Below, in pieces: positions 8,655-64,000 of a stretch of 64,000 bases of DNA. Positions within the stretch are counted from its first letter, which is position 1, and each line of letters begins with the position of its first letter. Below the pieces are notes generated by a model. It saw only the letters and a program-made list of their open reading frames with translations. It did no database searches and was not told the origin of the DNA. Both the position numbers and the translations under genes were made by a program. The stretch comes from Sulfurimonas sp. (lineage in GTDB: Bacteria; Campylobacterota; Campylobacteria; Campylobacterales; Sulfurimonadaceae), in assembly GCA_965243085.1 (NCBI GenBank), contig CBDETZ010000003.1, positions 29,720-93,719 on the forward strand, given 5' to 3'.

Positions 8655-8666
8655 AACATTTCCTAA

Positions 8667-11235: not shown

Positions 11236-11308
11236 TAGTTATATTCCTAATTTTTAAATGAACCACCTTAACTATGGAACAAAAGTTATCATTTCTAAAA
11301 AATCTACT

Positions 11309-18014: not shown

Positions 18015-18024
18015 CAACATCAGT

Positions 18025-40566: not shown

Positions 40567-40835
40567 AGACTTCTTGCAAAACTCCTATATACCACAGAGA
40601 GCTAAGAAGGACTAAAATTGTGTAAAACAAATTTTTATTCCTAGCCTAAGCTAAGGGTAAAATATTTTTTTGTGCAAGGTTAGTACTTACTATCCCTTCC
40701 ATAGGACACTTTATAGAGAGCCTTACTCAGCGTTAAAGAACCCCAACCCTAGCTTTGGCTACGCTTGAGAACATTTACCTTGATTAAAACTCTCTATAAA
40801 GTGCTAAGCCATATAAGGAGTTTTGCAAGAAGTCT
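40567..40835 (+). mobile_element. MITE-A
   Basis: IRs, agt TSD. Confidence 0.95.
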
Positions 40836-41271
40836 AGTAAAAAAACTTCTAGGTGTAGAATTTATAATAACACCAAAAAGAAGTGCTGTATCAGATATAC
40901 TTGCAAAAGTTGACAGTGAGGCAGTTGAACTTTTGTTTAGAGAATGGATAAGAATTTATGTCGATACTACAGGAAAACATCTAAGCGTAGATGGTAAAGT
41001 GATGAATGGTAGTAGATATAAAGACCAAAAGGCTATACAAGTTGTTGGTGCAGTTCTATCAGAGATAGGTGTAGTTATTGCTCATCAAAAAATTGCAGAG
41101 AAATCAAATGAAATACCTGCTTTACAAGCTATGATAGCAGAGCTTGGAGATGAATTTCTCTTTACCTTTGATGCGATGAACACACAAAAAAACTCTTGAT
41201 TCTATTGAGCAAAGTGGTTCAAAGTATATTGCTAAAGTTAAAGATAACCAAAAAACACTTCTTGATAAAAT

Positions 41272-42187
41272 AGACTTCTTGCAAAACTCATTTTCCAGCA
41301 ACCTCAAATCCACGGTCAAAATTAACTAATCCACATATCAGATTGAAGCGAAGATTGAACCTTTTTCTACGGTTACGATATTTCTGTTTAAGGATTTGAA
41401 AAGTCTTTAATTTAGCATTGATATGTTCAACACATATGCGAGCTGAAGCTTCTCTTTTATGTTGATTTTTTTGTGTATCAGTTAATGGATGTAGCTTTGA
41501 TTTCTTATATGGTATTTGAGTGTTATTATGTTGCTTTTTAATACCAAGATAGCCTAAATCTACATAGATACAAGTTTGAGGTTTCACAGGTAGATCACTC
41601 TGTTTAAAGAGTTTAAAATCATGAGTAGTACCTTTGCATGTATGAGCACAAATAATACGTTCATCCTTGTCAATAACGATTTGCCCTTTTAGTGTATGGT
41701 TTCTTTTCTTCCCTGAGTAGTAATCTCTTTGCTTTTTTTTGGTCGTTGTATGGGGGACTCTGTAGCATCAATGACGATAAACTCTAAGTCCATATCATCT
41801 CCATATAAAGCACGTTTACTTGGTAATGAAAACTTTCCAGATTTTATTAAAACATCTTCAACATCTCTTACTATTCGAGAAGCTGTAGATTCACTTACTC
41901 CATAATCAAAGCCAATATGTTCTAAGGTTCTATATTCTCTGTAATAACTTAACATTAATAGTACTTTTTCTTTTGAATCTAAACTTTTTCTACCACCAAC
42001 TCCATGGTTTTTAGTTCTCTCTTTTTCATAGGCTATAAATACTAAAAGCATTTCATTAAATGTATCTTTATTTACACCAATAAGACGCTTAAAATTCTTT
42101 GGTTCTTTCTTCTGTAATTTTTCATATTTATTCATATCAATCTGATAGCATTTTTAGTTCCTACTTTTAGAGTTTTGCAAGAAGTCT
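41272..42187 (-). mobile_element. IS5 ISL2-like element, complete
   Basis: IRs, aat TSD; copy of 22492-23407. Confidence 0.93.
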
Positions 42188-43021
42188 AATAGATGAAATA
42201 TCAAGAGAGATAAAACCATCAAGCACTTATAAGGCTAAAGCAATCCAGCAGTCTAATGAGCGGATAAATAGAGAGGTATTTGTATATCAACCGACTACTT
42301 TTTATCATAATGAAATCACCCATGTTCGCTCAATCATTAAAACCATTAAAAAAATACACAAGACAAACCATAAAACAGGAGAAGTAACAAACAGCACTAG
42401 TATTCAGTTCTGTATAGCAAATTTTCGTGAAAATGCGGAGTTCTTTCATGATAAAATTTTACTCCATTGGAAGGTAGAAACAATGCACCAATACAAAGAT
42501 AATACACTTTTAGAAGATGACCATAATGCTCATCTAAATCCATTTTTAATGACAATTATCAGAAGCATTATTTTAAATATCTTGCACCTAAATGGTACAA
42601 AATCTATACAAGAACAACTCATTAACAATAGATGGGATTTAGATGACTCTATCGCTCAACTTTTGAAATTTAGTTTTTAGTGGATTGTGGTGGGTAATAT
42701 ATATGAAGTCACAGTTTAAATCTTGTTCTAAGATAGTAGAGTACATGGCAAGGTATACCCATAAGTCTGCTATTGCTAACTCTAGGATTATCTCCATAGA
42801 TAACAACATCATAAAATTCAAATACAAAGATTATAAAGATGATTCTAAACTAAATAGCGATGAGTTCATTAGACTTCTTGCAAAACTCCTTATATGGCTT
42901 AGCACTTTATGAGACCACTGCACAGTATAATCTAACAAAGCAATCTATTTAAAGGCATTAAAAGCACTTTTCAGCTAAAATAACATCACTAAGAAGAGGT
43001 ACAAAGTGGCATTTAAAGATA

Positions 43022-45693: not shown

Positions 45694-46744
45694 ATGCCAA
45701 CAGTACCAAGTCTTTATGGATTAAAGAAAACAAATCGTGATTATACAAAAAAAGAAACTTGGGGGGAAGAACCAATTTAACTCTTCGTTTCCAGCATCAT
45801 TGTGTTGTTACTTAGAATCAAAAGATATTCAAGCCAATTACCTTTCAATTCAAAATAAACATTTTTCTGCAACATCAACAATAAAAATAAGTGAAGTTTT
45901 TGGAATATCATCAAAAGATAATGATATTTATTTTGCTTTTGAAGCTCAACATACACCTTTCCAAAAATATGTTATTGGTACATTACCAAGAACAGACTTA
46001 GTAATTCAGAAAGAAAGTAATGGAGAATGTTTATCAGGATTAGAAGTAAAACTTACAGCATTACCGGATAATAGTACACATACATTAACAGAAGCTTGCT
46101 ATGGAAGTGAAATCGTTGTACGTCCGGATACAATTGTTTACTTAGCCTGTAGTATAGCTTCTAATTTAGATGAAAAATTAAAAGACTGCATTCCTGATAT
46201 TGAACTTGATTGGGCAGATGCATCAGCAGTTTTACATGAAATAGTAACTATAGTTGAATCGATTAAGAGAATATCAATTATTTTGGAAGCAAATCAAAGT
46301 CCATTTTCACTACAGCCAGTTTGGAAAACAAAAGGCAAATCACCTGCTCTTGCAGATAATTGCTTAGATATATTTGTATGGAGTGATGCTGGTTTTTGTA
46401 ATTTTATTTCTAGTATTTCTAACAGTGACCCAAAAGCTACAAAAATAACTAGGCAAACAAGAACAGCTATTTGGCTTTTTAAGATGTTACTAGATATAAA
46501 AAAATCAGGAAAGTTTGACCATGAATCAATAATTGACAACCTTTCTTATAATACAAAAAATGATAAAGCCTTTGCCTCTTCTGGAAATATTACAAATTCA
46601 TATATGTCTTGTACTAGATTAACAACTCCAATTGTTACAAAAGCAGAAATAAAGAAAATAATTTTGGGCGGAGGTCAAAATTTATTAAGCCCCAAACGTA
46701 GGTTTGATGCCATAATATTTAATTCACCTGAGCTATTTGTATAA
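45694..46744 (+). pseudogene. HindVP-like type II restriction endonuclease with a +1 frameshift
   Basis: MPTVPSLYGL...TWGKNQFNSSFP is restored by removing one G of the G6 at 45761-45766; LEVKLT PD-(D/E)xK-like motif. Confidence 0.75.
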
Positions 46745-46746
46745 AT

Positions 46747-47813
46747 AGACTTCTTGCAAAACTCATTTTCCAGCAACCTCAAATCCACGGTCAAAATTAA
46801 CTAATCCACATATCAGATTGAAGCGAAGATTGAACCTTTTTCTACGGTTACGATATTTCTGTTTAAGGATTTGAAAAGTCTTTAATTTAGCATTGATATG
46901 TTCAACACATATGCGAGCTGAAGCTTCTCTTTTATTTTGATTTTTTTGTGTATCAGTTAATGGATGTAGCTTTGATTTCTTATATGGTATTTGAGTGTTA
47001 TTATGTTGCTTTTTAATACCAAGATAGCCTAAATCTACATAGATACAAGTTTGAGGTTTCACAGGTAAATCACTCTGTTTAAAGAGTTTAAAATCATGAG
47101 TAGTACCTTTGCATGTATGAGCACAAATAATACGTTCATCCTTGTCAATAACGATTTGCCCTTTTAGTGTATGGTTTCTTTTCTTCCCTGAGTAGTAATC
47201 TCTTTGCTTTTTTTTGGTCGTTGTATGGGGGACTCTGTAGCATCAATGACGATAAACTCTAAGTCCATATCATCTCCATATAAAGCACGTTTACTTGGTA
47301 ATGAAAACTTTCCAGATTTTATTAAAACATCTTCAACATCTCTTACTATTCGAGAAGCTGTAGATTCACTTACTCCATAATCAAAGCCAATAGACTTCTT
47401 GCAAAACTCCTATATGCATTAGCACTTTATAGAGAGTTTTAATCAAAGTAAATGTTCTCAAGCGTCGCCAAAGCTACGGTTGGGGTTCTTTGACGCTGAG
47501 TAAGGCTCTCTATAAAGTGTCCTATGCAAGGGACAGTACGTACTAACCTTGCATAAAAAAATATTTTACCCTTAGCTTAGGCTAGGAATAAAAATTTGTT
47601 TTACACAATTTTAGTCCTTCTTAGCTCTCTGAGGTATAGAGGAGTTTTGCAAGAAGTCTAATATGTTCTAAGGTTCTATATTCTCTGTAATAACTTAACA
47701 TTAATAGTACTTTTTCTTTTGAATCTAAACTTTTTCTACCACCAACTCCATGGTTTTTAGTTCTCTCTTTTTCATAGGCTATAAATACTAAAAGCATTTC
47801 ATTAAATGTATCT
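46747..47813 (-). mobile_element. IS5 ISL2-like element, 5'-truncated, with MITE-A
   Basis: Right IR at 46747; homology to 22492-23407 stops at ~47813. Confidence 0.9.
47392..47659 (-). mobile_element. MITE-A (subtype b)
   Basis: IRs, aat TSD. Confidence 0.95.
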
Positions 47814-48051
47814 CTTATTATAACACTAAGCATTTAGGGATGCGAAGCACTTGGAAATTGTAAGATTTTATGACAAAATGCAATATTTCTAAACTTTTCG
47901 TAAATATTTGCTTAAAATATTCTTATGCCTGAAATGTATCTTAGTCCTTAGAGGCTGTAATAAAGAAAAGGCTCATGTTTTAATACTGAAAAGAATAATA
48001 GGCTATATGCCTGAATAAGAGAATAGTTAGAAAACATAAAAGGATAAAATT

Positions 48052-49025
48052 ATGACTAATATAAATGACATAACATATATTGGCGTTGATATTGCAAAAG
48101 ATAAAATTGATATTTGTATAAATAATGGTAATTCCTCAGGTCATGTATATAGCTCCTACTCCAATAATTTGGATGGTTTTCTAAACTTTTTTCTTTTAGC
48201 TAATAGTATTAATCACTTAAAAAATATAAGGATAGGTCTTGAAGCAACAAGCACCTACATGATAGCATTACAAAAATACTTAGACCTTCATGAAATAAAA
48301 TATATATTAATCAATCCAAATAAATTACATCATTTCATAAAATACAAACATAAAGAAAGTAAAACAGATAAGCTTGATAGTTACTACATCTCAGATTATA
48401 TAATGACATTACGAGATCGAAACTTTAATAGTACTCACTCATCAAGAAAAACGCTTTTTCAGTCTTATAACGCTTATATTAACCTAATCACAACAACAGA
48501 AACAAGGCTAAAAGGTCTTAACGATAGTATCTTAAGCAATGATTTCACAAGCCAAGCTTTACAAAACCAAATCAAAAATTTGAAACTAGCCTTAACTAAG
48601 ACAAAAAATGTAGCACAAAAAGATTTCCTAGAAACTCTCAAAATTTCTATGCCTGAATAAAAAATGATTTGGTTGGTGTAGGAGATAAAACCTTGATGGC
48701 AGTTTTACCAATAATCTACGATATCTCAAATAAATATTCTCTTAACCAACTTCAAAGCTTAGTAGGTCTTGACCCAGTATATAAAAATAGTGGTTCATCA
48801 GTAAATAAAAAACAAAGAATAAGTAAAAAAGGAAATTCAAGAGTACGAGCGGTCCTTTACATGTCCGCAGTATCCTCAATCCGTTCAAATGCAGACCTAT
48901 CACTAAAATACAATCGTCTATTAGACAATGGCAAGCCTCCTATGTTAGCACTAGTCGCAATCATGGCACATATATTTCGAGCAATAGTAAAGAAACTAAA
49001 CTACTACAAAGCTCTCAATGAATAG
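48052..49025 (+). pseudogene. IS110-family DEDD recombinase/transposase, frameshifted
   Basis: YIGVDIAKD, GLEATS, KTDKLD (RuvC-like) then GVGDKT...GLDP...SG.S...ISKKGNSRVRAVLY (Transposase_20-like); stop at 48660, continuation in the -1 frame. Confidence 0.9.
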
Positions 49026-49134
49026 TTAGATTTCTAATGCTTACTAGATTTTAGCTCTTCATTGCTTTCTCTTGGTTTAGTAAGTATTAGAAACTTAATT
49101 AACTTTAAGTACTTTAAAATAATAGGAAACATAA

Positions 49135-49536
49135 ATGCCAACAAAAACAACAAAACCTGAAAGTTCACAAGAAGATATAAAAGATTATTCTCCTCAAAAT
49201 CTAAGCCAAACAAACCCTGCTTTATTTATGGAAAGATATAACAAAAATGAAATTTCTCTTGCTGGTAAAGTAATTGACTTAACAACATCTGACCCTAAAC
49301 CAAAATACGAAAAAGATGGTAGTACACAAGTTATAAATGAAGATGGCAGTATGGCTTTTTGGGAGCCTTTTTACTCAGCTGAAATTATCTTTGAAGGTGG
49401 TTCTATGAGAATGAATTTGCAGTCTTCTATTTATCAAGGTTTGGTAGTAGGTAAAAGATACCTCTTTGAGGGAATGATGGGCTTAGAGTTTAAAAAAATT
49501 AATCCTAAGTTCTACAATGCAACTTTAATAATGTAG
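49135..49536 (+). CDS. Putative single-stranded DNA-binding (OB-fold) protein
   Basis: 133 aa, beta-strand pattern, RBS agga; sits upstream of an RCR Rep. Confidence 0.45.
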   Translation: MPTKTTKPESSQEDIKDYSPQNLSQTNPALFMERYNKNEISLAGKVIDLTTSDPKPKYEKDGSTQVINEDGSMAFWEPFYSAEIIFEGGSMRMNLQSSIYQGLVVGKRYLFEGMMGLEFKKINPKFYNATLIM

Positions 49537-49545
49537 GTTTCCTTT

Positions 49546-49851
49546 ATGCTTTTGAAGAATTTTTCAAGGGCTGAACAAGATTACATTATATTTATGGATA
49601 GTGGTTCAAGTGTTCCTTATCATATGGAAGACGTTCCTTACTATCCTATCCCAGTAATCAAGTTAGAAACTCTTGAATATGAAGACAAGCTTTATATCAA
49701 GTCTAACTCTTTTTATTGCGTTGGTACACGCTTACACTCTTTTGTAAGAAAAATATCAGCACAAGACTATAGAAAAATAAAATCAGAAATAGAAGCTAAA
49801 AAGAAGTCTAATAGCATAGTTGGTAAACAATTAGTTATGGACTTTTCTTAA
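49546..49851 (+). CDS. Hypothetical protein
   Basis: 101-aa ORF in a compact operon. Confidence 0.6.
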   Translation: MLLKNFSRAEQDYIIFMDSGSSVPYHMEDVPYYPIPVIKLETLEYEDKLYIKSNSFYCVGTRLHSFVRKISAQDYRKIKSEIEAKKKSNSIVGKQLVMDFS

Positions 49852-49875
49852 AATTCTATATTTTCGTTTATCTCT

Positions 49876-49898
49876 CCCCCCGTGGTTTAACAAGGGGG
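49876..49898 (+). other. Putative double-strand origin/nick hairpin
   Basis: ccccccgtggtttaacaaggggg, a GC stem with TTAACA in the loop, 70 bp upstream of Rep. Confidence 0.65.
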
Positions 49899-49968
49899 TA
49901 TCAGTAGCCATTAAAAATGAACAAGTCTCTATCGGTAGCCAAATACAAAAAGGAAGAAAAACAAACCT

Positions 49969-52832
49969 ATGAATATAATCTCTCAAACAGTAGACACAAT
50001 AAAAACTCATTACACAATATCAAAAAATATAAATGATGAAGACTTTCTTTTCTATTCTAAAATAATCAAAACTCTAATATCTTTAAAAAAAGACTCACAA
50101 GAACTAAAAAATAACTATGGTTCTATAAAAACAGTTAATTATACTTTTGGTGATTTTAGATTTAACATACTACCAACCTCAATAACTGGTTTCTCCATCG
50201 TAATGCAAAATTCAGATTTCCAATTAGCATTAAGACAATCTAAAAGTAAAATAAATGCTTCACCTCTCATAAAAGCCGAATTTAGAGCAGAATTTCTAGC
50301 AAGATTAGGCTATATAAAATGTTTAGAAATAGTGAATAATTTTGTAAAAGAGTACATTTTAACTGACTGTGAAATAACTATTAGTGAAATACATCTAGCA
50401 TCAGACATACAAGGCTACGATTTTAAGCTATCTCACTTCGCTCAAATGAAAACACGCATGAGAACTGGTAATACTCATGATGAAGAAACTTTAGAAGCTT
50501 CTGCTAGCGTTCATGGTACTATTACTACCTTTACTGGCTTTACATTCGGTAAAGGGGCACCACAATCCACTAAAAATTAAATTTCAAGAGTTGAGCGATA
50601 GAGTCATCTAAATCCCATCTATTGTTAATGAGTTGTTCTTGTATAGATTTTGTACCATTTAGGTGCAAGATATTTAAAATAATGCTTCTGATAATTGTCA
50701 TTAAAAATGGATTTAGATGAGCATTATGGTCATCTTCTAAAAGTGTATTATCTTTGTATTGGTGCATTGTTTCTACCTTCCAATGGAGTAAAATTTTATC
50801 ATGAAAGAACTCCGCATTTTCACGAAAATTTGCTATACAGAACTGAATACTAGTGCTGTTTGTTACTTCTCCTGTTTTATGGTTTGTCTTGTGTATTTTT
50901 TTAATAGTTTTTATGATTGAGCGAACATGGGTAATTTCATTATGATAAAAAGTAGTTGGTTCATATATAAATACTTCTCTATTTATCCACTCATTAGATT
51001 GCTGGATTGGTTTAGCTTTATAAGTGCTTGATGGTTTTATCTCTCTTGATATTTCATTTATTTTATCAAGAAGTGTTTTTTGGTTACCTTTAACTTTAGC
51101 AATATATTTTGAACCACTCTGCTCAATAGAATCAAGAGTTTTTTTGTGTGTTCATCGCATCAAAGGTAAAGAGAAATTCATCTCCAAGCTCTGCTATCAT
51201 AGCTTGTAAAGCAGGTATTTCATTTGATTTCTCTGCAATTTTTTGATGAGCAATAACTACACCTATCTCTGATAAAACTGCACCAACAACTTCTATAGCC
51301 TTTTGGTCTTTATATCTGCTACCATTCATCACTTTACCATCTACGCTTAGATGTTTTCCTGTAGTATCGACATAAATTCTTATCCATTCTCTAAACAAAA
51401 GTTCTACTGCCTCACTATCAACTTTTGCAAGTATATCTGAGACAGCACTTCTTTTTGGTGTTATTATAAATTCTACACCTAGAAGTTTTTTTACTTCTTC
51501 TTTTTGAACATGTTTATCTATCCAAATAGAGATTTGTTTGTAATCTGTAGCTCCCATTAGTCCAGCTAATATAGCTAGATATAAAATATGTTCTAGTTTA
51601 TGCCGTTTCCCTTGACCCTTACGATGGTCTGGAACTCTTGATAGTAACTCTAAAAGTTTATTTGATTCAGCTATTTTTGCATAACCTTTTCTTGAACGCT
51701 TATGTGCTAATTTATCTCTTGCTTTTATTGCCATTTTCTTATCACCTTGTTTTTCTCAAAAGCAAGCAATAATTATTCCACTTTTAATTTCTAGTTATTA
51801 ATGGATTGGGGTGGTAAAGGGGATTACCTACTAAGGATTTACGATAAAACAAAGGAAATTAAAACTTTCAAACATAAATCATTTGCAAAAACTCATTTAT
51901 GGCAAAATAATAAAAATTATAATCCTGATTTGAAAGTATGGCGTTTAGAAATACAAATAAGAAGAGCTAAATTAAAGAAGATGGTTAATTCAAATGGAAA
52001 CACAATGGATAACTATCACAACTGTTTAAACGGAATACCTGATTTATGGTCAAAAGCTCTAGAAGATTATGAAATAAAAGATGTACCAAGAGATAAAACT
52101 TCTGACTTATTCCACGGTGATAGAGTTCAAAAAAATGGTAAAACAGTACTTCTTACAAAACATTCAATAACTAAAATATTTAAACGCTCTCCAAGTCTAT
52201 ATTTTTGGGAAAAACTAAAAACATGGAACCATAACGATAGATTTAACAAAGACATAAAAAAAATAACATGGACTACTAAAAACATAAATATAACTCCTTT
52301 ATATTATTTTGATTACTTAAAACAATTTGGATACTTACCCATCTCAACAGCTCCTAAAACTCCTAATCATGGTTCACAAGAATATGTAAATAATTCTATA
52401 AAGTCTCTATATTCCACACTAGCAAAGCATAAAGGTTCAGTTACAAAAAAAACATTAATAGAAGCCTTTAAAATTGCAAACGAGGACAGTATAAAAAGAA
52501 ATGATGTCTCTCTATTAGAAGATAGTTTTAATAAGCAGTTGGACTGGATGGAACTTGTAGATGGTCATGTTCATTCAGGTGTTCTAAACACACCAGACTA
52601 CAAGTCCTTAGAAACTGAAATAGTAAATGTTATCTCAACTTGTGATAATCACATTAAAAATGTTTTATATTCAGAAGATATTTTACTTAGAATAGAAGCT
52701 CGTATGCACTCTCTCAAACATACACCAGATAAAGTTATTTACAAAGACCTTGACTATCTTGACTCTATGACTACCCGATTAGAAGCAAGACTAGCATTCC
52801 ACCCTATGGAGTACAATCATGCTTTCCGCTAA
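49969..52832 (+). pseudogene. Rep_trans-family rolling-circle initiator interrupted by ISAs1
   Basis: Removing 50558-51822 gives FTFGKGDYLLRIYDKTKE...VWRLEIQIRR; also the ISEIHLASD motif. Confidence 0.82.
50558..51813 (-). mobile_element. ISAs1 type A
   Basis: IRs, perfect 9-bp TSD gtaaagggg. Confidence 0.93.
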
Positions 52833-52965
52833 CGAGCTATTAGTCATTAAAGAATTAGCAATCTTCGGAGAAAAACATAATATCAATAAAACAAATATAT
52901 CAAAAAAAATAGATTTAACTCAAAAAACAGTAAGAAATATTATAAAAAAATTAAAGGAACTCTAA
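52819..52965 (+). CDS. Small winged-HTH DNA-binding protein (48 aa, absent from the ORF track)
   Basis: MLSANELLVIKELAIFGEKHNINKTNISKKIDLTQKTVRNIIKKLKEL; overlaps the Rep stop and ends 1 nt before the next ATG. Confidence 0.65.
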   Translation: MLSANELLVIKELAIFGEKHNINKTNISKKIDLTQKTVRNIIKKLKEL

Positions 52966-52966
52966 A

Positions 52967-53356
52967 ATGTCAAAATTGAATGAACAATCTTCAAGATGGG
53001 ACACAATTAAATATTTTAAAAAAGAAGATTTTGATTGTAGATGTGGCTGTGGTCTCAATAATATTGACTACGCCTTAGTGTTCAAATTAGATAGCGTCCG
53101 TAAGCTATCAGGTATCCCTATCTTTGTTAATTCAGCATGTAGGTGTCATCCACATAATAAAATTATAGGAAGTACTGTAGGCTCTTCACACCCTAAAGGA
53201 CTAGCAATTGATATTCGAATTAGAACCCCCACCCAAAGATTTAAGATCTTAAATGCACTTATAAAAGTAGGTTTTTCTCGTATAGGAATTTACAGAAATT
53301 TTATACATATTGATTTAGACTTATCTAAAGTTCAAAATCTAATCTGGTATAGATAA
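52967..53356 (+). CDS. Peptidase M15A-type D-Ala-D-Ala metallopeptidase (endolysin-like)
   Basis: YFKKEDFDCRCGCG, VNSACRC..HN, SSHPKGLAID, IGIYRNFIHID. Confidence 0.88.
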   Translation: MSKLNEQSSRWDTIKYFKKEDFDCRCGCGLNNIDYALVFKLDSVRKLSGIPIFVNSACRCHPHNKIIGSTVGSSHPKGLAIDIRIRTPTQRFKILNALIKVGFSRIGIYRNFIHIDLDLSKVQNLIWYR

Positions 53357-53379
53357 TTATTTAAAAAAGGATACAAAAA

Positions 53380-53640
53380 ATGCCAAATTTATTCACAATG
53401 GTTCTTCCATATTTATTAGAAATGCTCTTAGCATATATCAAAAGTTCAGATACAACACAAGACGATAAAGTACTAAAGATAGTACAAGAAGGTGCAAGAT
53501 ACTTAGCTCCATGCCCTAATAACAGTTTACAATACTTTGAGGCTGATAAAATTGCAAATGCAACTATGACGACTAAATCTATTGATATTGTACTTCCATC
53601 ATTTGATAATGATGATGGTTTAGCTGATTGGGGTGAATAA
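53380..53640 (+). CDS. Small phage-like protein with hydrophobic N-terminus
   Basis: RBS aagga; follows the peptidase; holin or virion role not established. Confidence 0.6.
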   Translation: MPNLFTMVLPYLLEMLLAYIKSSDTTQDDKVLKIVQEGARYLAPCPNNSLQYFEADKIANATMTTKSIDIVLPSFDNDDGLADWGE

Positions 53641-54533
53641 AACTAACATTTCTCATTCTTATGGAATTATAGATTATCCCGCTCCGTTCTCACTTATATA
53701 CATTTTGGAATTTTATCTTGTTACTAAGACTGTGTTCGTTGCTCTTTTAAATTTTAATTTCCAGGATACTAGGAGGGAAGATTATCTAAATTATTATTTT
53801 GGAAATATACTTAGACTTCTTGATACTAGTAAAGGTAGTAGTGTTAGTTTACCACTTCCTCTTTCTCATATTTCTATTTCTCGTTATAGAATTATTGATT
53901 TAAAAAATATTTCTCTTTCCAATAAAGAAAATTTAGGTTCATACTTGAGCTCTGGAAAGCCTATTTCTAATTATTCTCACGGTAGTGGTTATTCAAGGGA
54001 ATTTCATGACTATTATCATTAGACTTCTTGCAAAACTCCTCTATACCTCAGAGAGCTAAGAAGGACTAAAATTGTGTAAAACAAATTTTTATTCCTAGCC
54101 TAAGCTAAGGGTAAAATATTTTTTTATGCAAGGTTAGTACGTACTGTCCCTTCCATAGGACACTTTATAGAGAGCCTTACTCAGCGTCAAAGAACCCCAA
54201 CCGTAGCTTTGGCGACGCTTGAGAACATTTACTTTGATTAAAACTCTCTATAAAGTGCTAAGGCATATAGGAGTTTTGCAAGAAGTCTATTATTACGAGC
54301 ATGGTTATATTTTAGAAAGGTATGGACTCGAGGGTAGTCTAATTTCTTGTAATGGTGGTCATGATATTTTTTATATTTTTGAAGATTATGTTACTGGTAC
54401 TAGATGTTCCCTTTTAGAGGATCAGCAAATTTATTTTTATAGCTTGGATGTAACATATAAAATAACAAAAAAAAAGACAGACTGCTGCATTCTAGTATGT
54501 TGTGAACCTGACAAGTATGAACTAAGAACTTAA
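53633..54533 (+). pseudogene. Hypothetical protein (~210 aa) interrupted by MITE-A
   Basis: DYYH|YYEHGY rejoins in frame across the att TSD. Confidence 0.75.
54021..54288 (+). mobile_element. MITE-A (subtype b)
   Basis: IRs, att TSD. Confidence 0.95.
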
Positions 54534-54568
54534 AAAAAAATAATATAAAAAAAAAAGGAGTTTTATTT

Positions 54569-55090
54569 ATGAATTGTGAACAAATATTAACAGAAGTAAA
54601 CGATAGAGTTAGTGAAGGATTAGGACTTGGAAGGACTACAAAAGAATATGCAAAAAACATTCAATCAATTTCAGAATCTAGTCATGGTCTCTTGAGCGAT
54701 TTGCATGTATCTAAAATCCCCTCTATTATAACCTCAATGAATATGCTAACAAGAGGTCCTTTGAATAGCCAAAACCAATCTTATCTCCAAGATAACGCTA
54801 GAGGAGCTTTTGAGAATTCTAGTAGTAATAAAGCTGAACTAGTATCTATTAATAGTCATCTTGAGGGATTAATTGCTGCGGCGAATACAGAAATCGAGTA
54901 TGTCCTTGCATGTCTTAATGCTTCTCGTAGTGCCTCTGGCTCTTCCTCTTCTGCCTCATCAAGAGCCTATGCAGCCTATTCAGTATCAACACAAATACTA
55001 AATAAACTTAACAGTACCCCTCCAGTAAATCTATCTTCTATAAACGATAAGCTAGATAGGATATTAAAATTCTTAGGAAACCCAGCATGA
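54569..55090 (+). CDS. Hypothetical helical protein
   Basis: RBS aggag; 173 aa, Ser-rich tract. Confidence 0.75.
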   Translation: MNCEQILTEVNDRVSEGLGLGRTTKEYAKNIQSISESSHGLLSDLHVSKIPSIITSMNMLTRGPLNSQNQSYLQDNARGAFENSSSNKAELVSINSHLEGLIAAANTEIEYVLACLNASRSASGSSSSASSRAYAAYSVSTQILNKLNSTPPVNLSSINDKLDRILKFLGNPA

Positions 55091-56151
55091 ACATTTTAAC
55101 CATAGCCCCATATTTACTGACTATAGGTGGAGTATTAAAATCTTTCTTCCAGTCAAGAAAAACAATAGATATTTTAGCTACTTCCGCAACCATTACCTCT
55201 ATGGTGAACTCTCACCAGTTGAAAATCAAAGAAGCAACGGATACAGACTTAGCGTCATCTCTTGGTGATATAGAAGATTTTGTTTCAGCTGGTCTACCTG
55301 AATTTGAGAAAGACTTTAGAGTTTCAATAGCCAATCCTACTACAATGCCTCACTATCTCAAAAATCAAAATGACTTGGCTATGGCTCAAATAGAAAAGAC
55401 TAACAACCTCACGGAGCAAATGAAGTTCCAAAATGAACTTATAGCAAGGCAATCAAAAGAGGAGTTAAAAAGAAATTCTGTACTTTTTTCAATGGCAGAA
55501 ACAGTGACTGCAGTGCTACCTGCATTAGTGATACAACTTCAAGAAGTTTCTAAAATCGCTAGTGTTATCTCAATCTCTTCAGATATTGAAATCGCTTATC
55601 GTGAGGTTTCTCTAGTTAATCATACTGAACTTATTAAGACTCTTGGTGCTATTACTACGGCTATGAATACAAGTACAGAAACTAAAACAGCTTATGCAGA
55701 GCTATCTTTAACAAATCATGCTGAACTAGTTAGAACTATATCCGTTATAGCATCTAACTTATCATCTGTTTCAAACTTGGCAACATACCAAACAACAGTA
55801 GCAAGTATTACTGATTTAGATGGTAATGTACTAGCACAACTTAGCCCACAAGAACTTTCATCATACAAAGATTTTTCTCTAGCTCGTGCAAAGGAAAAGG
55901 AAAAGGAAATAGGAGACTATCAAACAACACCAGTAGCCATAAAAAACCTTGATGGTAACACAGTAGCAACAGCCAAACCAATGGAAATAACAGCAATTAA
56001 AGACGCTGTGAACACAAAAAATGAAACTGATGAAATGGAGTTTGAATTAGATGAGGAAACACTAGACTATGTTTTTAGTCCTCTTCCTCTCCCAGGTTTC
56101 ACAAAAGCAACACTTGATGAAGATTACAAAGAAATAATAGAAGGAATGTAA
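55087..56151 (+). CDS. Hypothetical protein with two internal repeat pairs
   Basis: 354 aa; 32-aa period (YREVSLVNHTEL / YAELSLTNHAEL) and 44-aa period (YQTTVASITDLDGN / YQTTPVAIKNLDGN). Confidence 0.8.
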   Translation: MNILTIAPYLLTIGGVLKSFFQSRKTIDILATSATITSMVNSHQLKIKEATDTDLASSLGDIEDFVSAGLPEFEKDFRVSIANPTTMPHYLKNQNDLAMAQIEKTNNLTEQMKFQNELIARQSKEELKRNSVLFSMAETVTAVLPALVIQLQEVSKIASVISISSDIEIAYREVSLVNHTELIKTLGAITTAMNTSTETKTAYAELSLTNHAELVRTISVIASNLSSVSNLATYQTTVASITDLDGNVLAQLSPQELSSYKDFSLARAKEKEKEIGDYQTTPVAIKNLDGNTVATAKPMEITAIKDAVNTKNETDEMEFELDEETLDYVFSPLPLPGFTKATLDEDYKEIIEGM

Positions 56152-56153
56152 GA

Positions 56154-56951
56154 ATGGTAAAGCAAGATACGATAACATACCAAACATATAGTGCTAAACC
56201 AAGTATTTTAGGAACTGGTGCAAAGTATGGTATAAATGAAATGGTAGAGACTGGTGTATCAATGGGATTGATGCAAGGTAGAAAAGTAGTAGTAGAGGGT
56301 ATTACGAAAGATATACAAAATGAGTTTGTTAAAGATATGCTTCAAGATGGTTTGAGTGCCGGTCTAGGTTTCTTCTCAAATCAAGCAATGCAATTGCAAG
56401 AAAAGCTACTAGAAAAGGGTTATAATTCTGGTCTTGCTGTCGTCGCAACTTATTATAATAAAGGACTTATTAAAAGGAAATTTCAGCAAAAATTTGGTAG
56501 AGGTCGTAAGGCTACTATGTTTGCTAAATTTCTAGGAGGTAATAATAATAGGGCAGAGGAGAGCCGATTAATAGCTGACTTTGTTCAAATGGATATAGAC
56601 TCTTCGGCGAGTTCTCACGATACTCTAGCTCGTCAAGGTGTCTTAGAAAATCAATTCGTAAATGAAACTCTACAAGTGCAAAAAGAGGGGGTTAGTGCAG
56701 ATATAGCAAGGTTGCAAATTGACGGAATGCGTGACACTTTTGATATGAAAGTAAAAACTTCTTCATTTTTTGTTACTGATAAAAATTTAATTAAGAATAT
56801 GACTGGAATGTCAAGCGTTAAGGATAAGCATATAAAAAAACTAAACTCTTTAAGTGGCTCTATGGTTTTTGAAGATAGTGAGGGTAACTATGTTGGTTAC
56901 GCTGAGGCAGTCACAATTTTAATGAATGGAATGGGGCTACATCGTGCTTAG
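56154..56951 (+). CDS. Hypothetical Gly-rich helical protein
   Basis: 265 aa, translationally coupled to the previous gene. Confidence 0.75.
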   Translation: MVKQDTITYQTYSAKPSILGTGAKYGINEMVETGVSMGLMQGRKVVVEGITKDIQNEFVKDMLQDGLSAGLGFFSNQAMQLQEKLLEKGYNSGLAVVATYYNKGLIKRKFQQKFGRGRKATMFAKFLGGNNNRAEESRLIADFVQMDIDSSASSHDTLARQGVLENQFVNETLQVQKEGVSADIARLQIDGMRDTFDMKVKTSSFFVTDKNLIKNMTGMSSVKDKHIKKLNSLSGSMVFEDSEGNYVGYAEAVTILMNGMGLHRA

Positions 56952-56954
56952 ATT

Positions 56955-57239
56955 TTATTCTATTATTCTTTTTCCATTCTCATCGAATTTAAATTTACTC
57001 ATCTTTTCTAGTATTTGTCTATGGTCTTCGTCTATATCTGCACTGGTTGGACTCATCAAAAAGAGGAACATGCTTATCATCGCTATTATTGTTAGAAACT
57101 CTAAAGCCCTATTTTGCCTATCAGATAAACTATCAACCCACTTACCAAATTCATATAGGACAATCTCAAACCCTAAACCAACTTTCTCCAACCCTAAACC
57201 AATCTTTTCAAGGATATACATATGAGCAACCTTTACCAT
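56955..57239 (-). CDS. Small membrane protein
   Basis: One TM segment; convergent with the main operon. Confidence 0.5.
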   Translation of the reverse strand: MVKVAHMYILEKIGLGLEKVGLGFEIVLYEFGKWVDSLSDRQNRALEFLTIIAMISMFLFLMSPTSADIDEDHRQILEKMSKFKFDENGKRIIE

Positions 57240-57349
57240 GTTAAATTAAAAATAGGCAAACGAACCTTTACAGACAAGGTTTACGCTAATTCTTCTGATA
57301 GCATTATAGCATTTTATAAACAAGCATGTGAAGCTAAAGTTATGGAGAT
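57222..57349 (+). pseudogene. ORF truncated by ISNCY
   Basis: MSNLYHVKLKIG...KVMEI then reads into the IS end. Confidence 0.4.
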
Positions 57350-58969: not shown

Positions 58970-60840
58970 TTTCACAGGTAGATCACTCTGTTTAAAGAGT
59001 TTAAAATCATGAGTAGTACCTTTGCATGTATGAGCACAAATAATACGTTCATCCTTGTCAATAACGATTTGCCCTTTTAGTGTATGGTTTCTTTTCTTCC
59101 CTGAGTAGTAATCTCTTTGCTTTTTTTTGGTCGTTGTATGGGGGACTCTGTAGCATCAATGACGATAAACTCTAAGTCCATATCATCTCCATATAAAGCA
59201 CGTTTACTTGGTAATGAAAACTTTCCAGATTTTATTAAAACATCTTCAACATCTCTTACTATTCGAGAAGCTGTAGATTCACTTACTCCATAATCAAAGC
59301 CAATATGTTCTAAGGTTCTATATTCTCTGTAATAACTTAACATTAATAGTACTTTTTCTTTTGAATCTAAACTTTTTCTACCACCAACTCCATGGTTTTT
59401 AGTTCTCTCTTTTTCATAGGCTATAAATACTAAAAGCATTTCATTAAATGTATCTTTATTTACACCAATAAGACGCTTAAAATTCTTTGGTTCTTTCTTC
59501 TGTAATTTTTCATATTTATTCATATCAATCTTACCCCAATCCATTAATAACTAGCACTTAAAAGTGGAATAATTATTGCTTGCTTTTGAGAAAAATAAGG
59601 TGATAAGAAAATGGCAATAAAAGCAAGAGATAAATTAGCACAAAAGCGTTTAAGAAAAGGCTATGCAAAAATAGCTGAATCAAATAAACTTTTAGAGTTA
59701 CTATCAAGAGTTCCAGACCATCGTAAAGGTCAAGGTAAACGGCATAAATTAGAACATATCTTATATCTAGCTATATTAGCTGGACTAATGGGAGCTACAG
59801 ATTACAAACAAATTTCTATTTGGATAGATAAACATGTTCAAAAAGAAGAAGTAAAAAAACTTCTAGGTGTAGAATTTATAATAACACCAAAAAGAAGTGC
59901 TGTATCAGATATACTTGCAAAAGTTGATAGTGAGGCAGTAGAACTTTTGTTTAGAGAATGGATAAGAATTTATGTCGATACTACAGGAAAACATCTAAGC
60001 GTAGATGGTAAAGTGATGAATGGTATCAGATATAAAGACCAAAAGGCTATAGAAGTTGTTGGTGCAGTTTTATCAGAGATAGGTGTAGTTATTGCTCATC
60101 AAAAAATTGCAGAGAAATCAAATGAAATACCTGCTTTACAAGCTATGATAGCAGAGCTTGGAGATGAATTTCTCTTTACCTTTGATGCGATGAACACACA
60201 AAAAAACTCTTGATTCTATTGAGCAGAGTGGTTCAAAATATATTGCTAAAGTTAAAGGTAACCAAAAAACACTTCTTGATAAAATAAATGAAATATCAAG
60301 AGAGATAAAACCATCAAGCACTTATAAAGCTAAACCAATCCAGCAATCTAATGAGTGGATAAATAGAGAAGTATTTATATATGAACCAACTACTTTTTAT
60401 CATAATGAAATTACCCATGTTCGCTCAATCATAAAAACTATTAAAAAAATACACAAGACAAACCATAAAACAGGAGAAGTAACAAACAGCACTAGTATTC
60501 AGTTCTGTATAGCAAATTTTCGTGAAAATGCGGAGTTCTTTCATGATAGAATTTTACTCCATTGGAAGGTAGAAACAATGCACCAATACAAAGATAATAC
60601 ACTTTTAGAAGATGACCATAATGCTCATCTAAATCCATTTTTAATGACAATTATCAGAAGCATTATTTTAAATATCTTGCACCTAAATGGTACAAAATCT
60701 ATACAAGAACAACTCATTAACAATAGATGGGATTTAGATGACTCTATCGCTCAACTCTTGAAATTTAGTTTTTAGTGGATTGGGGTGTATCAATCTGATA
60801 GCATTTTTAGTTCCTACTTTTAGAGTTTTGCAAGAAGTCT
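58970..60840 (-). mobile_element. IS5 ISL2-like element, 3'-truncated, containing ISAs1
   Basis: Left IR at 60840; halves rejoin across the tatcaatct TSD. Confidence 0.9.
59532..60787 (+). mobile_element. ISAs1 type A
   Basis: IRs, 9-bp TSD tatcaatct. Confidence 0.93.
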
Positions 60841-61638: not shown

Positions 61639-63324
61639 TCACTTCTGTTGCTTTCTTAATGCTTCAACGGCTTGTTCAATACCTTTATCTTCTTTAGCTT
61701 TACTCCATACATCCCAAAAGTCTATGGTTGCACTATTAGGTTTTATTGTTGGTTCATCAATTCTTACTCTACTTGGCAGCAGTGATGCATCTCCAACTAT
61801 CAAAGCTTCTCCAATATCTAAAATTGGTAATAATTCAGAAAAATCTCCTAAATTATCAGGAAATAGTCTTTTGATTACATTTTGATCATCAGGATTAGTT
61901 AATCTCATTGCTATGAAATTCCCACATTGACTTAATATCGTTTTATTTACATCTGAAGGTCTTTGGCTAATAACAACAAGAGAGATCCCATATTTCCTAC
62001 CTTCTTTAGCTATCCTTTCAAAGCTTTGCAGTCCTTTTTCTTCTATGCTCCCTTTAGTCTGAGCAGGTAAATAAAGATGTGCTTCATCACAAAAAAGTGC
62101 TATCGGATGTCTTTTTTCTTCTTCCATCCATTGCTGAATAGAAAAAATTAATCTGCCGATTAATCCAGTAATAAGAGGTAAAATATCAGATGGGACCTCA
62201 GAGAAATCAATAATTTTCAAACCTTTATCATTTCCAAAATCTAATAATTTATTGGCTAATTCTAAAAACCAGTCATATTCTAGGAGAGCATTATCCGCGT
62301 TAAAAATAAAATTTAATCTTTTATCAGATTGCTTACTACTTAATCTTTGCACAAAACGTGTGAGTTTTCCATTTAATGGACCTTGCTTTTCACTTCCAGC
62401 TCTGGCTCCAGGGACCATTTCAGTATCTTTATCTTGTAGTGAAGATAATACATCATTAAGTTTATATGGAATTGGACTTTCAACAGTAAAGTTATTTAAT
62501 ACATCAGTTTTACCATCTTCAACAAGTTTTTCTTTTTTATATTTAATAATTAAATCAAAAAGTGTTCTAGATTGATTTGGAGCATTCGCATCACTTCTAT
62601 CTAAAAGCAAAGATTCAACTTCTTCATAAGATAAAAGCCAATATGGCAAAAATATTGTATCAGTATCACTTGGAGTGTCTGATGGTCCAGCAATTTTAAG
62701 TAACGTAGTATTATGTAAATCTTTTAGTGGTTTATACTCACCATGTAAATCAAATACAAGACTATTAATAGATTGAAGTGCAGAAGCTTTTTCGAGTATA
62801 TTTGCTACTGTCCATGACTTTCCAGACCCTGTTCCACCAACAATAACAGCATGTCTTTGGAAAAATTTATTACCATCTAAGTTTGCATTTGATTCTTCCG
62901 ATATGGTATATTTACCTATTGTTAAAGGATTCTCACTACTTGATGAAATAATATTCATAAATGCAGAAAGCTCGGCTTCTTGTAATAAAAAACAATCTGC
63001 ATTAATACTGGGAACTGTGTCTAATGTTCTCTTAAAAGTATTACGTGCTGTTCCAGTCCTTTCTATAAGCGTACCTACAAGGTTTACTTTAATTATATTT
63101 TCAACAATATAGTCAGGTTCTCCACTTTCGTCAATTTTATCAGAAATTGCCTTTCTCATGATTTTTGATATAAGACCTATGATAGTTTGACCTGTTTTGG
63201 TAGAACGTACTTGAACTATTTGATTCACTTGCACACTGTTTAATAACTCTTCCTTATCTACTTGAACAGTAATACTTCCAGTATCAACACTTTGTACTTT
63301 TCCAATTAATGAGTTAGGGTTCAT
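61639..63324 (-). CDS. herA: HerA-family ATPase (DUF87), partner of Sir2
   Basis: N-terminal HAS-barrel-like region, RHAVIVGGTGSGKS, FDLHGEY, DEAH, IAKEGRKYG...SQRPS. Confidence 0.9.
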   Translation of the reverse strand: MNPNSLIGKVQSVDTGSITVQVDKEELLNSVQVNQIVQVRSTKTGQTIIGLISKIMRKAISDKIDESGEPDYIVENIIKVNLVGTLIERTGTARNTFKRTLDTVPSINADCFLLQEAELSAFMNIISSSSENPLTIGKYTISEESNANLDGNKFFQRHAVIVGGTGSGKSWTVANILEKASALQSINSLVFDLHGEYKPLKDLHNTTLLKIAGPSDTPSDTDTIFLPYWLLSYEEVESLLLDRSDANAPNQSRTLFDLIIKYKKEKLVEDGKTDVLNNFTVESPIPYKLNDVLSSLQDKDTEMVPGARAGSEKQGPLNGKLTRFVQRLSSKQSDKRLNFIFNADNALLEYDWFLELANKLLDFGNDKGLKIIDFSEVPSDILPLITGLIGRLIFSIQQWMEEEKRHPIALFCDEAHLYLPAQTKGSIEEKGLQSFERIAKEGRKYGISLVVISQRPSDVNKTILSQCGNFIAMRLTNPDDQNVIKRLFPDNLGDFSELLPILDIGEALIVGDASLLPSRVRIDEPTIKPNSATIDFWDVWSKAKEDKGIEQAVEALRKQQK

Positions 63325-63326
63325 AA

Positions 63327-64000
63327 TTATAATATCTCCATAAATTTATTTAGTTGCCAATAAGAGCCATCGATTTCTAGACTTATTTCGGTTGAATCTT
63401 TTGATGTTTTATATGTAATTTTAGTTTTATTCTCATTCGAAGAGTCTTCTAAAAAGATATACTTATCAGCATCTTTTAACTCTTCCTTTGTATTCTCTGT
63501 TACTTCCTTTGTTATTAGTACAATAGGTATACCTTTTTTTACTTTCGCACGAATTTTTGGTGTCAGATGTTCATCATTAAATCCAAAACCTACAACAAGA
63601 AAACTGGAAGCGGTTTCAATTAAGCTATCTGATTTTTGAATTAGTTCTCTATAAGGGCTGTGATAAGCTTCTCTATACTTATTTTTGCTTGGTGTTATAA
63701 TTTGAGGCTCGTATTTATCTGAATAACAGTTAATGTATCGAATATCATCATTTACATTAAACCAATTGAGAGAGCCATGTACTTTAATTAAATTAACCAT
63801 ATCTCTATTTTTAAATAAAGTATTATCAAATATTGAAAGCATTTTTCCGTTAAAACCATCAGTAAAAGGGATATTATTATATGATAAAACATATTCCAAT
63901 ACCCTATCATAGTTAGTTGTAATAATATTTACAACTTTTGGATGAGTGTAAATAAGTTTTTCAATTAATACTTTAACCCCATTAAACTCTGGATTGCCTG
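63327..64000 (-). CDS. SIR2-like NADase of a Sir2-HerA anti-phage system (5' part outside the window)
   Basis: Frame is open to the window edge; IITTNYD, KVHGSLNW, GFGFNDEH motifs; 2 bp from herA. Confidence 0.88.
   Translation of the reverse strand, partial: GNPEFNGVKVLIEKLIYTHPKVVNIITTNYDRVLEYVLSYNNIPFTDGFNGKMLSIFDNTLFKNRDMVNLIKVHGSLNWFNVNDDIRYINCYSDKYEPQIITPSKNKYREAYHSPYRELIQKSDSLIETASSFLVVGFGFNDEHLTPKIRAKVKKGIPIVLITKEVTENTKEELKDADKYIFLEDSSNENKTKITYKTSKDSTEISLEIDGSYWQLNKFMEIL

Follow-up and report, generated by a model that had tools for sequence, protein, structure and literature searches.

In a stretch of 64,000 nucleotides from a Sulfurimonas sp. (contig CBDETZ010000003.1 of GenBank assembly GCA_965243085.1; hereafter the window) the region from 47814 to 57349 is a decayed prophage-like element, whose family occurs in Sulfurimonas, Sulfuricurvum and related Campylobacterota. 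As judged from sequence comparison, an IS110-family recombinase and a bridge-RNA-like transcript encoded in the left end of the element very probably form the integration system of the whole element and not of a small insertion sequence (IS). A first-pass annotation of the window had proposed a phage-like element which integrates through a bridge-type IS110 recombinase, and this proposal was borne out by the linkage of recombinase and cargo from both sides, by the two element ends, by the junctions between them and by the guide-target matches. The window copy is a dead relic and its value is that of a pointer to the family, whose intact members measure 10.4–12.7 kb and carry ~18–20 genes.

Proposed integration module

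The element opens with an IS110-type left end of 240 nt of non-coding DNA (47812–48051(+)), for which the alignment of 15 left ends points to a bridge-RNA-like transcript. The same two-loop RNA is common to all 15 left ends, and their starts are conserved, reading CT-CTTATAATG in one subgroup and TT-TCTATAATG in the other (hyphens set off the core dinucleotide). In the window copy the target-binding loop is closed by an outer stem (GCCU 47927–47930 with AGGC 47969–47972) and consists of the left target guide (47932–47941), an inner hairpin (47942–47957) and the right target guide TAATAAAG (47958–47965). The donor-binding loop is built alike from the left donor guide (~47989–48000), an inner hairpin (48001–48011) and the right donor guide TGAATAAGAG (48012–48021), the latter being the reverse complement of the left-end start CTCTTATT. 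The structure was tested by RNAalifold and by pair counts on the 15 left ends, with slid partners serving as control. Compensatory changes were found at 12 of 12 pairs of the three helices; when the 7 guide-to-donor pairs were added to the 12 helix pairs, 15 of the 19 scored pairs carried such changes and 99.3% of the cells were paired, compared to 30–50% in the slid controls. The thermodynamic z-score of the single-sequence fold was not significant and no Rfam family matched the left-end RNA, nor did any Rfam or ISfinder entry match the IS110 system of the family; the fold is supported by covariation.

The guides of this RNA match the DNA around the elements on both sides. At 14 of the 15 loci the host flank left of the core repeats the left target guide over 8–11 nt, the longest common string between guide and flank averaging 8.9 nt versus 4.4 nt for non-cognate pairs, and the left target sites differ from locus to locus save for two which share ATTATATCT. 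On the right side, the flanking DNA and the right target guide are reverse complements of each other in all seven cases analyzed (6–9 nt; non-cognate mean 4.3). Right ends were located in six loci at distances of 10,381–12,664 bp from the left ends, while the seventh was read by eye. A search by guide alone gives many chance matches in AT-rich DNA and a right end was only kept if the conserved right-end motif preceded it, the motif common to the loci being TTGACTTTTA...GAAT-CT or ...CGGAA-TT. On the donor side, pairing and covariation across the subgroups connect the right donor guide with the left-end start, and the match between left donor guide and right end extends over 5–8 nt. For example, the locus L019 exhibits a G-to-T covariation of the donor guide with the element end (ACGGAATT vs ACGTAATT), and the donor guides AATAAGAG and ATAGAAAA track the subgroup switch between CTCTTAT and TTTCTAT.

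Circular junctions, which the first-pass annotation had suggested looking for, were encountered in the form of right-end/left-end junctions in L004, L169 and L012, all from independent samples, where they reflect either a circle or a tandem copy. L004, an independent metagenome contig, is identical to the reference locus L002 up to position 19103 and then resumes at L002 position 7749, which lies 259 nt upstream of the IS110 start codon. Comparison of the two gives the left attachment site attL as ...GAATTATAT-CT-CTTATAGTG..., the right attachment site attR as ...TAGTATAGAAT-CT-TAAAAAAC... and the junction as ...TAGTATAGAAT-CT-CTTATAGTG.... L169 is a 10.4-kb contig which carries the junction and no host DNA. 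A check for terminal overlaps detected no circular contig. Furthermore, the junction rebuilds a sigma-70 promoter, reading TTGACA-17-TATAAT in L012 (12 of 12 consensus positions) and TTGACT-17-TATAGT in L004 (10 of 12).

For L012, unitig depths from a public run amounted to 92 for the host, 109 for the IS110 segment, 172 for the cargo, 70 for the junction and 84 for an IS110-deleted joint. With respect to the depths of the cargo and of the deleted joint we concluded that L012 holds a second, IS110-deleted copy. This copy lacks exactly 957 bp (7961–8917 vs 17984/17985), which take in the remainder of the left end as well as the bulk of the recombinase gene, and is present at ~0.8x host depth; it represents either a tandem copy devoid of its integrase or a circle or episome of 9,067 bp. 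It recalls the relation of the Thermus phage phiOH3 to phiOH16.

Taken as a working model, the integration cycle would proceed as follows. The circular form would carry the right-end/left-end junction, which would rebuild the sigma-70 promoter from TTGAC(A/T) in the right end and, after 17 nt, TATAAT or TATAGT in the left end. This promoter would drive the ~200-nt bridge RNA together with the IS110 (DEDD/Ser) recombinase. One RNA loop would pair with the element's own junction (donor) and the other with a chromosomal site, over ~8–11 and 6–9 nt around the CT or TT core, and recombination would insert the whole element, which would be the reason why the recombinase gene is found at the left edge and the right end 10–13 kb away. 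The divergent Rep_trans-like initiator probably acts for replication at the conserved hairpin upstream of its gene, and the M15 peptidase, or lysozyme in some relatives, suggests exit by lysis.

Many of the chromosomal targets share the sequence ATTATA just left of the core, namely in L002 (7740–7751), L010, L012, L013, L016, L017, L019 and L020. It is the reverse complement of a -10 box and lies partly outside the guide match; the L002 insertion precedes a divergent outer-membrane-like gene by 34 nt. Promoter regions may be preferred targets of the elements.

Linkage of recombinase and cargo

In the window the IS110 gene is a single-copy pseudogene (48052–49025(+)), present as two open reading frames (ORFs; 48052–48660 and 48669–49025). 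The frame is broken around 48658 by an apparent loss of ~10 nt at the codons reading YDF in intact homologues. Both Pfam domains of the DEDD recombinase recognized by the first-pass annotation were recovered, split over the two ORFs: PF01548 (DEDD) with 1.9e-18 and PF02371 (Transposase_20, i.e. Tnp_20) with 2.8e-16. The protein is 61–67% identical to the product of the intact gene of L002, which encodes 325 amino acids (aa), and the catalytic residues D11, E62, D104 and D107 as well as S248/S251, the serines of the SG.S motif, are invariant in 14 homologues.

Starting from the cargo, the restored replication initiator (Rep) retrieved 85 homologues, mostly from Sulfurimonas or unbinned metagenomes, and a scan of one genome per species gave 27 Campylobacterota loci. 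L002, a 115-kb contig, carries the element between a Mur-ligase gene and panD in the order intact 325-aa IS110, 129-aa, 97-aa, Rep, helix-turn-helix (HTH), M15, 77-, 200-, 373-, 264- and 124-aa genes, followed by ~8 further genes. All window proteins except a 173-aa ORF have counterparts in L002 in the same order, Rep being 64% identical. In every Sulfurimonas/Sulfuricurvum-type locus which includes upstream sequence, an IS110 gene is the immediate upstream neighbour in the same orientation. The order IS110-133aa-101aa-Rep-HTH-lysin-...-354aa-265aa-124aa was found in L002/L003, L005–L013, L016, L017, L019, L020 and L025 and also in the metagenome loci L088–L100 and L102; altogether ~25 loci from Sulfurimonas, Sulfuricurvum and metagenomes combine this order with an intact IS110 gene, the IS110 proteins being 34–81% identical. 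For comparison, the linkage was tested in reverse from the IS110 proteins on metagenome contigs. The cargo was present at each of the 11 loci whose IS110 reached at least 33% identity and whose contig extended far enough downstream, compared to 0 of ~65 more distant IS110s.

The first-pass annotation had asked for consistent linkage of the IS110 gene in homologous elements, and this holds for the Sulfurimonas-clade relatives and fails for the Arcobacter-type ones. At the IS110 position the latter encode a tyrosine integrase (PF00589) together with a CI-type repressor (PF07022), and they have no IS110 gene, which is a module swap and not a refutation of the linkage. Exchange is also apparent within the IS110-bearing loci: compared to L002, L010 shows 57% identity for Rep and 37% for IS110, while the values for L016 are 38% and 58% (L017 was also compared). 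Because the identities of Rep and IS110 are thus incongruent, the module of recombinase, RNA and right end has been exchanged between backbones.

These data bear on the simplest alternative, in which the IS110 gene belongs to an ordinary independent IS lying by chance beside an unrelated prophage or island. IS110 elements are common, the window is full of IS, and its IS110 gene is single-copy and broken, all of which would suit such a coincidence. Against it stands the linkage in ~25 loci over IS110 proteins diverged to 34–81% identity, with left flanks which vary by locus and a right neighbour which is always the same cargo; moreover, 10–13 kb separate the gene from the right end and from the predicted right target, and the right-end/left-end junctions enclose the entire cargo. 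We consider a chance neighbour extremely improbable. No stand-alone copy was seen among the close IS110 relatives, so that the possibility of a multicopy IS with ends of its own, raised by the first-pass annotation itself, did not materialize. The stand-alone IS was rejected as already contradicted by the linkage, the distant right end and the junctions.

Structure of the window copy

Apart from two nested mobile elements, the stretch 47831–57349 occurs only once within the window. The IS110-type left end starts at 47812 with the core CT, so that 47814, the start of the compact element in the first-pass annotation, is the first base 3' of the core, and 57349 is the final base ahead of the next IS (440-aa transposase, starting at 57350), which truncates the element. 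Owing to the CT core before 47814 and the IS from 57350, the earlier coordinates are exact at the left and mark a truncation at the right; what had been taken as the element end is a loss, the intact relatives carrying ~2–5 kb more. Neither a right end nor attR of the window element was found anywhere within the window, and the right part of the copy was lost in an IS-associated event.

From left to right the copy comprises the left end of 240 nt, the IS110 pseudogene, two small ORFs, a GC hairpin, the split rep gene, the HTH gene, the M15 peptidase gene and six family-specific ORFs. An ISAs1-type IS of 1,255 bp (50558–51813), flanked by the 9-bp duplication GTAAAGGGG at 50549–50557 and 51814–51822, sits in rep, and a miniature inverted-repeat transposable element (MITE) of 271 bp (54021–54291; 3-bp duplication ATT) sits in a 209-aa gene. 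Excising both in silico restores a 532-aa ORF (49969–50557 + 51823–52832) and a 209-aa ORF (53633–54020 + 54292–54533). With the recombinase frameshift near 48658, the ISAs1 copy in rep, the MITE in the 209-aa gene and the loss past codon 43 of a 124-aa gene, the copy bears four lesions. The first-pass annotation had rightly called the element defective on account of its broken Rep and recombinase, and the damage is larger than assumed there, the right ~2–5 kb carried by intact relatives being gone as well.

The insertion site of the window element can be read from its left junction. The left target half with the core, TTCATTAAATGTAT-CT (47798–47813(+)), lies inside an IS5-family transposase gene, and its part AAATGTATCT (47804–47813) is identical to the left target guide (47932–47941) of the element's own RNA. 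Written over the junction the site is AAATGTAT-CT-TTATTTAC, the flank AAATGTAT-CT corresponding to the left target guide. Three other IS5-family copies in the window (22601–22620(-), 42059–42078 and 59447–59466) hold the uninterrupted target AATGTAT-CT-TTATTTACACC, whose continuation fits CTTTATTAC, the right target guide in reverse complement. Since the left flank equals the left guide and the right guide fits three uninterrupted copies, we concluded that the element had inserted into an IS5-family copy.

Putative replication and lysis genes

Between the recombinase pseudogene and rep, the window copy encodes a 133-aa ORF (49135–49536(+)) and a conserved 101-aa ORF (49546–49851(+)). The former adjoins Rep in relatives with enough upstream sequence and has homologues in ~30 loci. 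It had been described as SSB-like, i.e. similar to single-stranded-DNA-binding proteins, which found no support: a 32-sequence profile gave no match in the PDB and the members of the family gave none in Pfam. The GC hairpin noted before is indeed present just upstream of rep as CCCCC-GTGGTTTAACAA-GGGGG (49877–49898) and is followed on its 3' side by two direct repeats, TATCAGTAGCC (49899–49909) and TATCGGTAGCC (49930–49940), the hairpin and repeats together forming a putative double-strand origin (49877–49940(+)). Every relative examined keeps the hairpin, and the stem, the 12-nt loop and a TAAGTAGCC-type motif after it recur over loci whose Rep is ~45–68% identical to that of the window or L002; a second motif copy is clear only in the closer relatives. 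The hairpin region may plausibly serve as the nick and binding site of Rep. A GC-stem hairpin beside the initiator gene is also seen at pT181-type origins.

The initiator itself (49969–52832(+); 49969–50557 + 51823–52832) has 532 aa when read through the ISAs1 copy which splits it. It exhibits the motifs EIHLASD, RIYDK with the candidate catalytic tyrosine, and WRLEIQIRR; Y206 and K208 are invariant. The first-pass annotation had assigned it to Rep_trans. Neither the Rep halves nor the restored 532-aa protein nor 23 homologues matched Pfam Rep_trans (PF02486), and PDB searches with the single Rep and with the profile of its family (A1) found nothing. Support for the assignment came at the level of the superfamily, where A1 and a second family (A3, from Xanthomonadales and other phyla) were aligned by hhalign with 99.9% and the A3 profile matched PDB entry 4CIJ (Rep_trans fold) with E=3.5e-4, RLYDK being aligned with RFYEK and the WR.E.Q.R motif being aligned too; 3 of 26 A3 members match PF02486 weakly. 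Rep thus appears linked to Rep_trans only transitively and at superfamily level. Compared to the Rep_trans initiators pT181 RepC/RepD, 4CIJ and CTX-phi RstA, the motifs SRiDl..D, R(I/L)Y(D/N)K and WR.E.Q.RR align. Unlike the PF02486 initiators, Rep falls below the Pfam thresholds, possesses an extra C-terminal region of ~250 aa and is connected by a transitive link. Among GenBank phages the sole match of Rep was an Inoviridae replication initiator with 22% identity.

The loci L032–L083 hold a distant sister family of Rep (23–31% identity over the N-terminal ~250 aa), which is widespread in Lysobacteraceae/Arenimonas, Dormibacteria, Ktedonobacterales and others. As its members mostly fall below the Pfam Rep_trans threshold, it represents a large under-annotated branch of the superfamily. 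A scan of IMG/VR gave three loci, one of them a palindromic artefact. The IMG/VR 'viral genome' L086 (IMGVR_UViG_2568526144_000001) consists of a Rep-containing fragment duplicated perfectly in inverted orientation and is most likely an assembly artefact.

Downstream of rep follows a 48-aa HTH protein (52819–52965(+)), conserved in relatives, whose Pfam match to HTH_36 (2.9e-4, below the gathering score) agrees, weakly, with the winged HTH gene described before. The next gene (52967–53356(+)), likewise correctly named in the first-pass annotation, encodes a Peptidase_M15_3 and candidate endolysin (Pfam 7.9e-15, 55.4 bits vs a gathering cut-off of 23.2; PHROG 894 'endolysin' 9.4e-27), in which SSHPKGLAID and FIHID may provide the metal-binding residues. 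Among eight related elements, Pfam recognized M15_3 in five and Phage_lysozyme in two. Right after the lysis enzyme, Arcobacter-type relatives included, lies an 86-aa ORF with a hydrophobic N-terminus (53380–53640(+)), possibly a holin or a lysis accessory protein.

Nature of the cargo

The remaining genes are specific to the family. Pfam matches among the proteins of the window element are limited to the IS110 recombinase (two frames), the weak HTH and Peptidase_M15_3. The four to five further proteins of the first-pass annotation are present as family-specific ORFs, one of them, however, being a single 209-aa gene (53633–54533(+); 53633–54020 + 54292–54533) split by the MITE. The 209-aa protein combines a variable body rich in Ser, Tyr and Asn with a conserved C-terminal motif, CC(I/L)LVCCEPDKY, and is a candidate host-recognition or surface protein. 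For the 173-aa ORF (54569–55090(+)) neither a homologue in any related element nor a family match was found; it may be a lineage-specific accessory gene. The 354-aa protein (55087–56151(+)) is family-specific and shows a hydrophobic helix at the N-terminus, long helices, two beta-hairpin repeats and a C-terminus which is acidic and conserved (TDEMEFE); its AlphaFold2 (AF2) model is mostly helical with a predicted local distance difference test (pLDDT) score of 63.8. The all-helical 265-aa protein (56154–56951(+)) is the product of the best-conserved non-Rep gene of the family, with 52 representative clusters among 1.84 billion proteins, and its AF2 model (pLDDT 57) is nearly all helical with one short hairpin. 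Foldseek gave no match with E<0.1 for the two models against viral structures, a result which is uninformative given shallow alignments and low-confidence models. Finally, the first 43 codons of the 124-aa gene (57222–57349(+)) are retained, cut by the IS from 57350. A paralogous pair of ~120 aa near the right end is conserved in all full elements and gone from the window copy; profiles of the 119- and 122-aa families found nothing in the PDB.

Over the 124 ORFs of eight elements, Pfam unveiled IS110, M15_3 or Phage_lysozyme, accessory methylases, QueC and a lectin/DUF285 protein. No type IV secretion system (T4SS) or plasmid genes were among these ORFs, nor were Zot or P-loop families save for a host RadA outside the element, and no Walker A motif was found in the window or L002 proteins. 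A Microviridae VP1/F-type jelly-roll capsid protein gave no Pfam or PHROG match, and the core proteins other than Rep are below ~435 aa. The first-pass annotation had likewise recognized no Zot, microvirus VP1 or T4SS gene, and its concern that the unfamiliar ORFs might prove to be T4SS or plasmid genes can be set aside. The T4SS/plasmid and microvirus readings were rejected, no such families being present among the element ORFs. Proteins of the structural region matched PHROGs weakly and to families without assigned function, and virion proteins were found neither by Pfam, PHROGs and PDB profiles nor by the two AF2 models. Several ORFs of 60–90 aa are present, and none was matched to a coat family.

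Accessory cargo varies (L016 18160–19962; L171 7509–8024 + 2917–3525; L005 6745–7530) and includes a 601-aa DUF285/Laminin_G_3 lectin-like protein, ArdA anti-restriction protein with a glycosyltransferase, a QueC-like protein and C5 methylases.

Temperate-phage traits occur in the family, namely IS110 or tyrosine integrase, a CI repressor in relatives and an M15 peptidase or lysozyme, and the cargo is probably a virus forming its own particles. An integrative rolling-circle plasmid, or a satellite without a particle of its own, would account for the lack of a recognizable structural protein and for the near absence of the family from IMG/VR, and the IS110-deleted copy at ~0.8x host depth would fit an episome. 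Such a non-viral cargo is unlikely, however, in view of a lysis enzyme which is conserved and in some members apparently swapped for an analogue, the CI repressor and tyrosine integrase of the Arcobacter-type relatives, ~10 co-linear family-specific genes including membrane-anchored helical and variable lectin- or fibre-like proteins, and the lack of mobilisation or T4SS genes.

If the cargo is viral, it could belong to the filamentous phages (Tubulavirales) as represented by Neisseria Nf or Thermus phiOH16, its genes for morphogenesis having diverged past recognition. A Rep_trans-type initiator and an IS110 gene are adjacent on the circular map in Nf1 and the Thermus inoviruses as well (PMC7058167, PMC11437467), the sole phage match of Rep is an Inoviridae initiator, and distant Rep relatives occur on contigs of Lysobacteraceae and Arenimonas. 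Yet no Zot/pI ATPase and no P-loop was found in any ORF, RstB and coat families gave no matches, the conserved endolysin (M15 or lysozyme) is atypical of extruding phages, and some members carry a lectin-like 601-aa or fibre-like 256-aa protein. A filamentous phage of this type therefore appears quite improbable, and we lean slightly towards a cargo that is non-filamentous.

At its widest, the interpretation would make the family a new viral lineage infecting sulfur-oxidising Campylobacterota, temperate, lysis-competent and non-filamentous, with lysogeny programmed by a bridge RNA; the target loops would have been rewritten per lineage for different chromosomal sites and the IS110/RNA/right-end module swapped between phage backbones or replaced by a tyrosine integrase. 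As a whole, we give this proposal an even chance of being correct. Several observations weigh against the reading of the region as a prophage-like element which integrates through its IS110 recombinase. Capsid, portal, terminase, Zot and packaging ATPase were not found among the 124 ORFs mentioned above, the two modelled proteins are helical, of low confidence and without a fold match, and only three relatives were found in IMG/VR. The junctions could stem from tandem prophage copies instead of free circles. In L007 (7557–7572) the left target guide TATAGCATCT mismatches the left flank AATACTCCT while the right side matches, possibly owing to a later rearrangement of the flank or to off-target insertion. 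Furthermore, the window copy has no right end, and its integration rests on the left junction and the intact target in sister IS copies.

Comparison with known systems

The bridge RNA was described for IS621, an insertion sequence of the IS110 group, by Durrant et al. 2024 (PMC11208160). The present elements resemble IS621 in the DEDD + Tnp_20 recombinase, in a non-coding RNA encoded ahead of the gene within the left end, in two internal loops in which an inner hairpin is flanked by a left and a right guide, in a left guide identical to the top strand of the left flank and a right guide complementary to the right flank, in the CT core (one subgroup here) and in the promoter rebuilt at the circle junction (PMC11208160). 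They differ in the moved unit, which comprises 10–13 kb and ~18–20 genes versus ~1.3 kb, in the second subgroup with a TT core and in the right target guide of 6–9 nt.

IS110 genes in small phages have been reported before. The proviruses of Neisseria Nf1-4/MDA-phi have an IS110-family transposase at one of their ends and, at the opposite one, a replication initiation factor (Kawai et al. 2005, cited in PMC7058167), and integration occurs at dRS3 with a CT core (PMC7058167). The Thermus inoviruses phiOH16, Zuza8 and Zuza27 likewise have the transposase and a replication initiation factor at opposite ends, and phiOH3 is known as a transposase-less derivative (PMC11437467). For the Nf and the Thermus phages alike, integration at a CT-core site is attributed to this transposase (PMC7058167, PMC11437467). 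These inoviruses have Zot and coat genes but lack an endolysin, whereas the present elements possess an endolysin, no Zot and unrecognizable structural genes, and the host phylum differs. The searched literature described no bridge RNA or guide-target matching for the Nf or Thermus inoviruses and, within its limited coverage, held nothing combining IS110, bridge RNA and filamentous phage, nor Sulfurimonas, prophage and IS110; because of that coverage such absence is weak evidence.

Small tailless phages such as PM2 (Corticoviridae) and FLiP (Finnlakeviridae) are of comparable genome size (~9–10 kb) and likewise combine an initiator of the rolling-circle type with a lysis enzyme and numerous small membrane-like proteins. 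Their double-jelly-roll capsid protein and packaging ATPase, however, were not detected in the family, where the candidate genes are those of the 209-, 122- and 119-aa families.

IS110-carrying phages with a replication initiation factor are thus already known. New are the explicit bridge-RNA anatomy and the guide-flank covariation bounding a whole phage-like replicon, furthermore the TT-core subgroup, the exchange of integration modules between backbones and a cargo which is not recognizably that of an inovirus. Bridge recombinases have so far been studied as minimal 1.3-kb IS and as engineering tools; here they appear to bound and move a 10–13 kb replicon of ~20 genes, which, if true, would make this a natural RNA-guided recombinase with a cargo of >10 kb. 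The guide-target matches at more than a dozen sites show how the element retargets, and attachment sites become predictable straight from the prophage sequence. In addition, the data offer, at the level of sequence, a mechanism by which some small phages (Neisseria Nf, Thermus inoviruses) could insert themselves with an IS110 transposase of their own, as had been proposed earlier, and expose a Sulfurimonas-type family of mobile elements whose structural genes match nothing known.

Genomic surroundings

The element is located in a hotspot of defence genes and IS. To its left lies a HindVP restriction endonuclease gene (45737–46744(+)) and just past the window end a C5 methylase gene; a HerA/DUF87-like ATPase of 561 aa and a SIR2_2 protein beside it (61639–63324(-), 63327–64000(-)) look like a SIR2-HerA defence pair. 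The IS load of the window is extreme, with at least 7 copies or fragments of the ISAs1-type 1,255-bp element, IS5-family copies and a DDE IS with a 440-aa transposase, often nested (e.g. 14771–18015, 23519–24742, 40246–42692 and 59533–60787). The 271-bp MITE is present in ~12 copies, for example at 11308, 12571, 16217, 19273, 44009 and 47389, with the terminal inverted repeat AGACTTCTTGCAAAACTCC and a 3-bp duplication.

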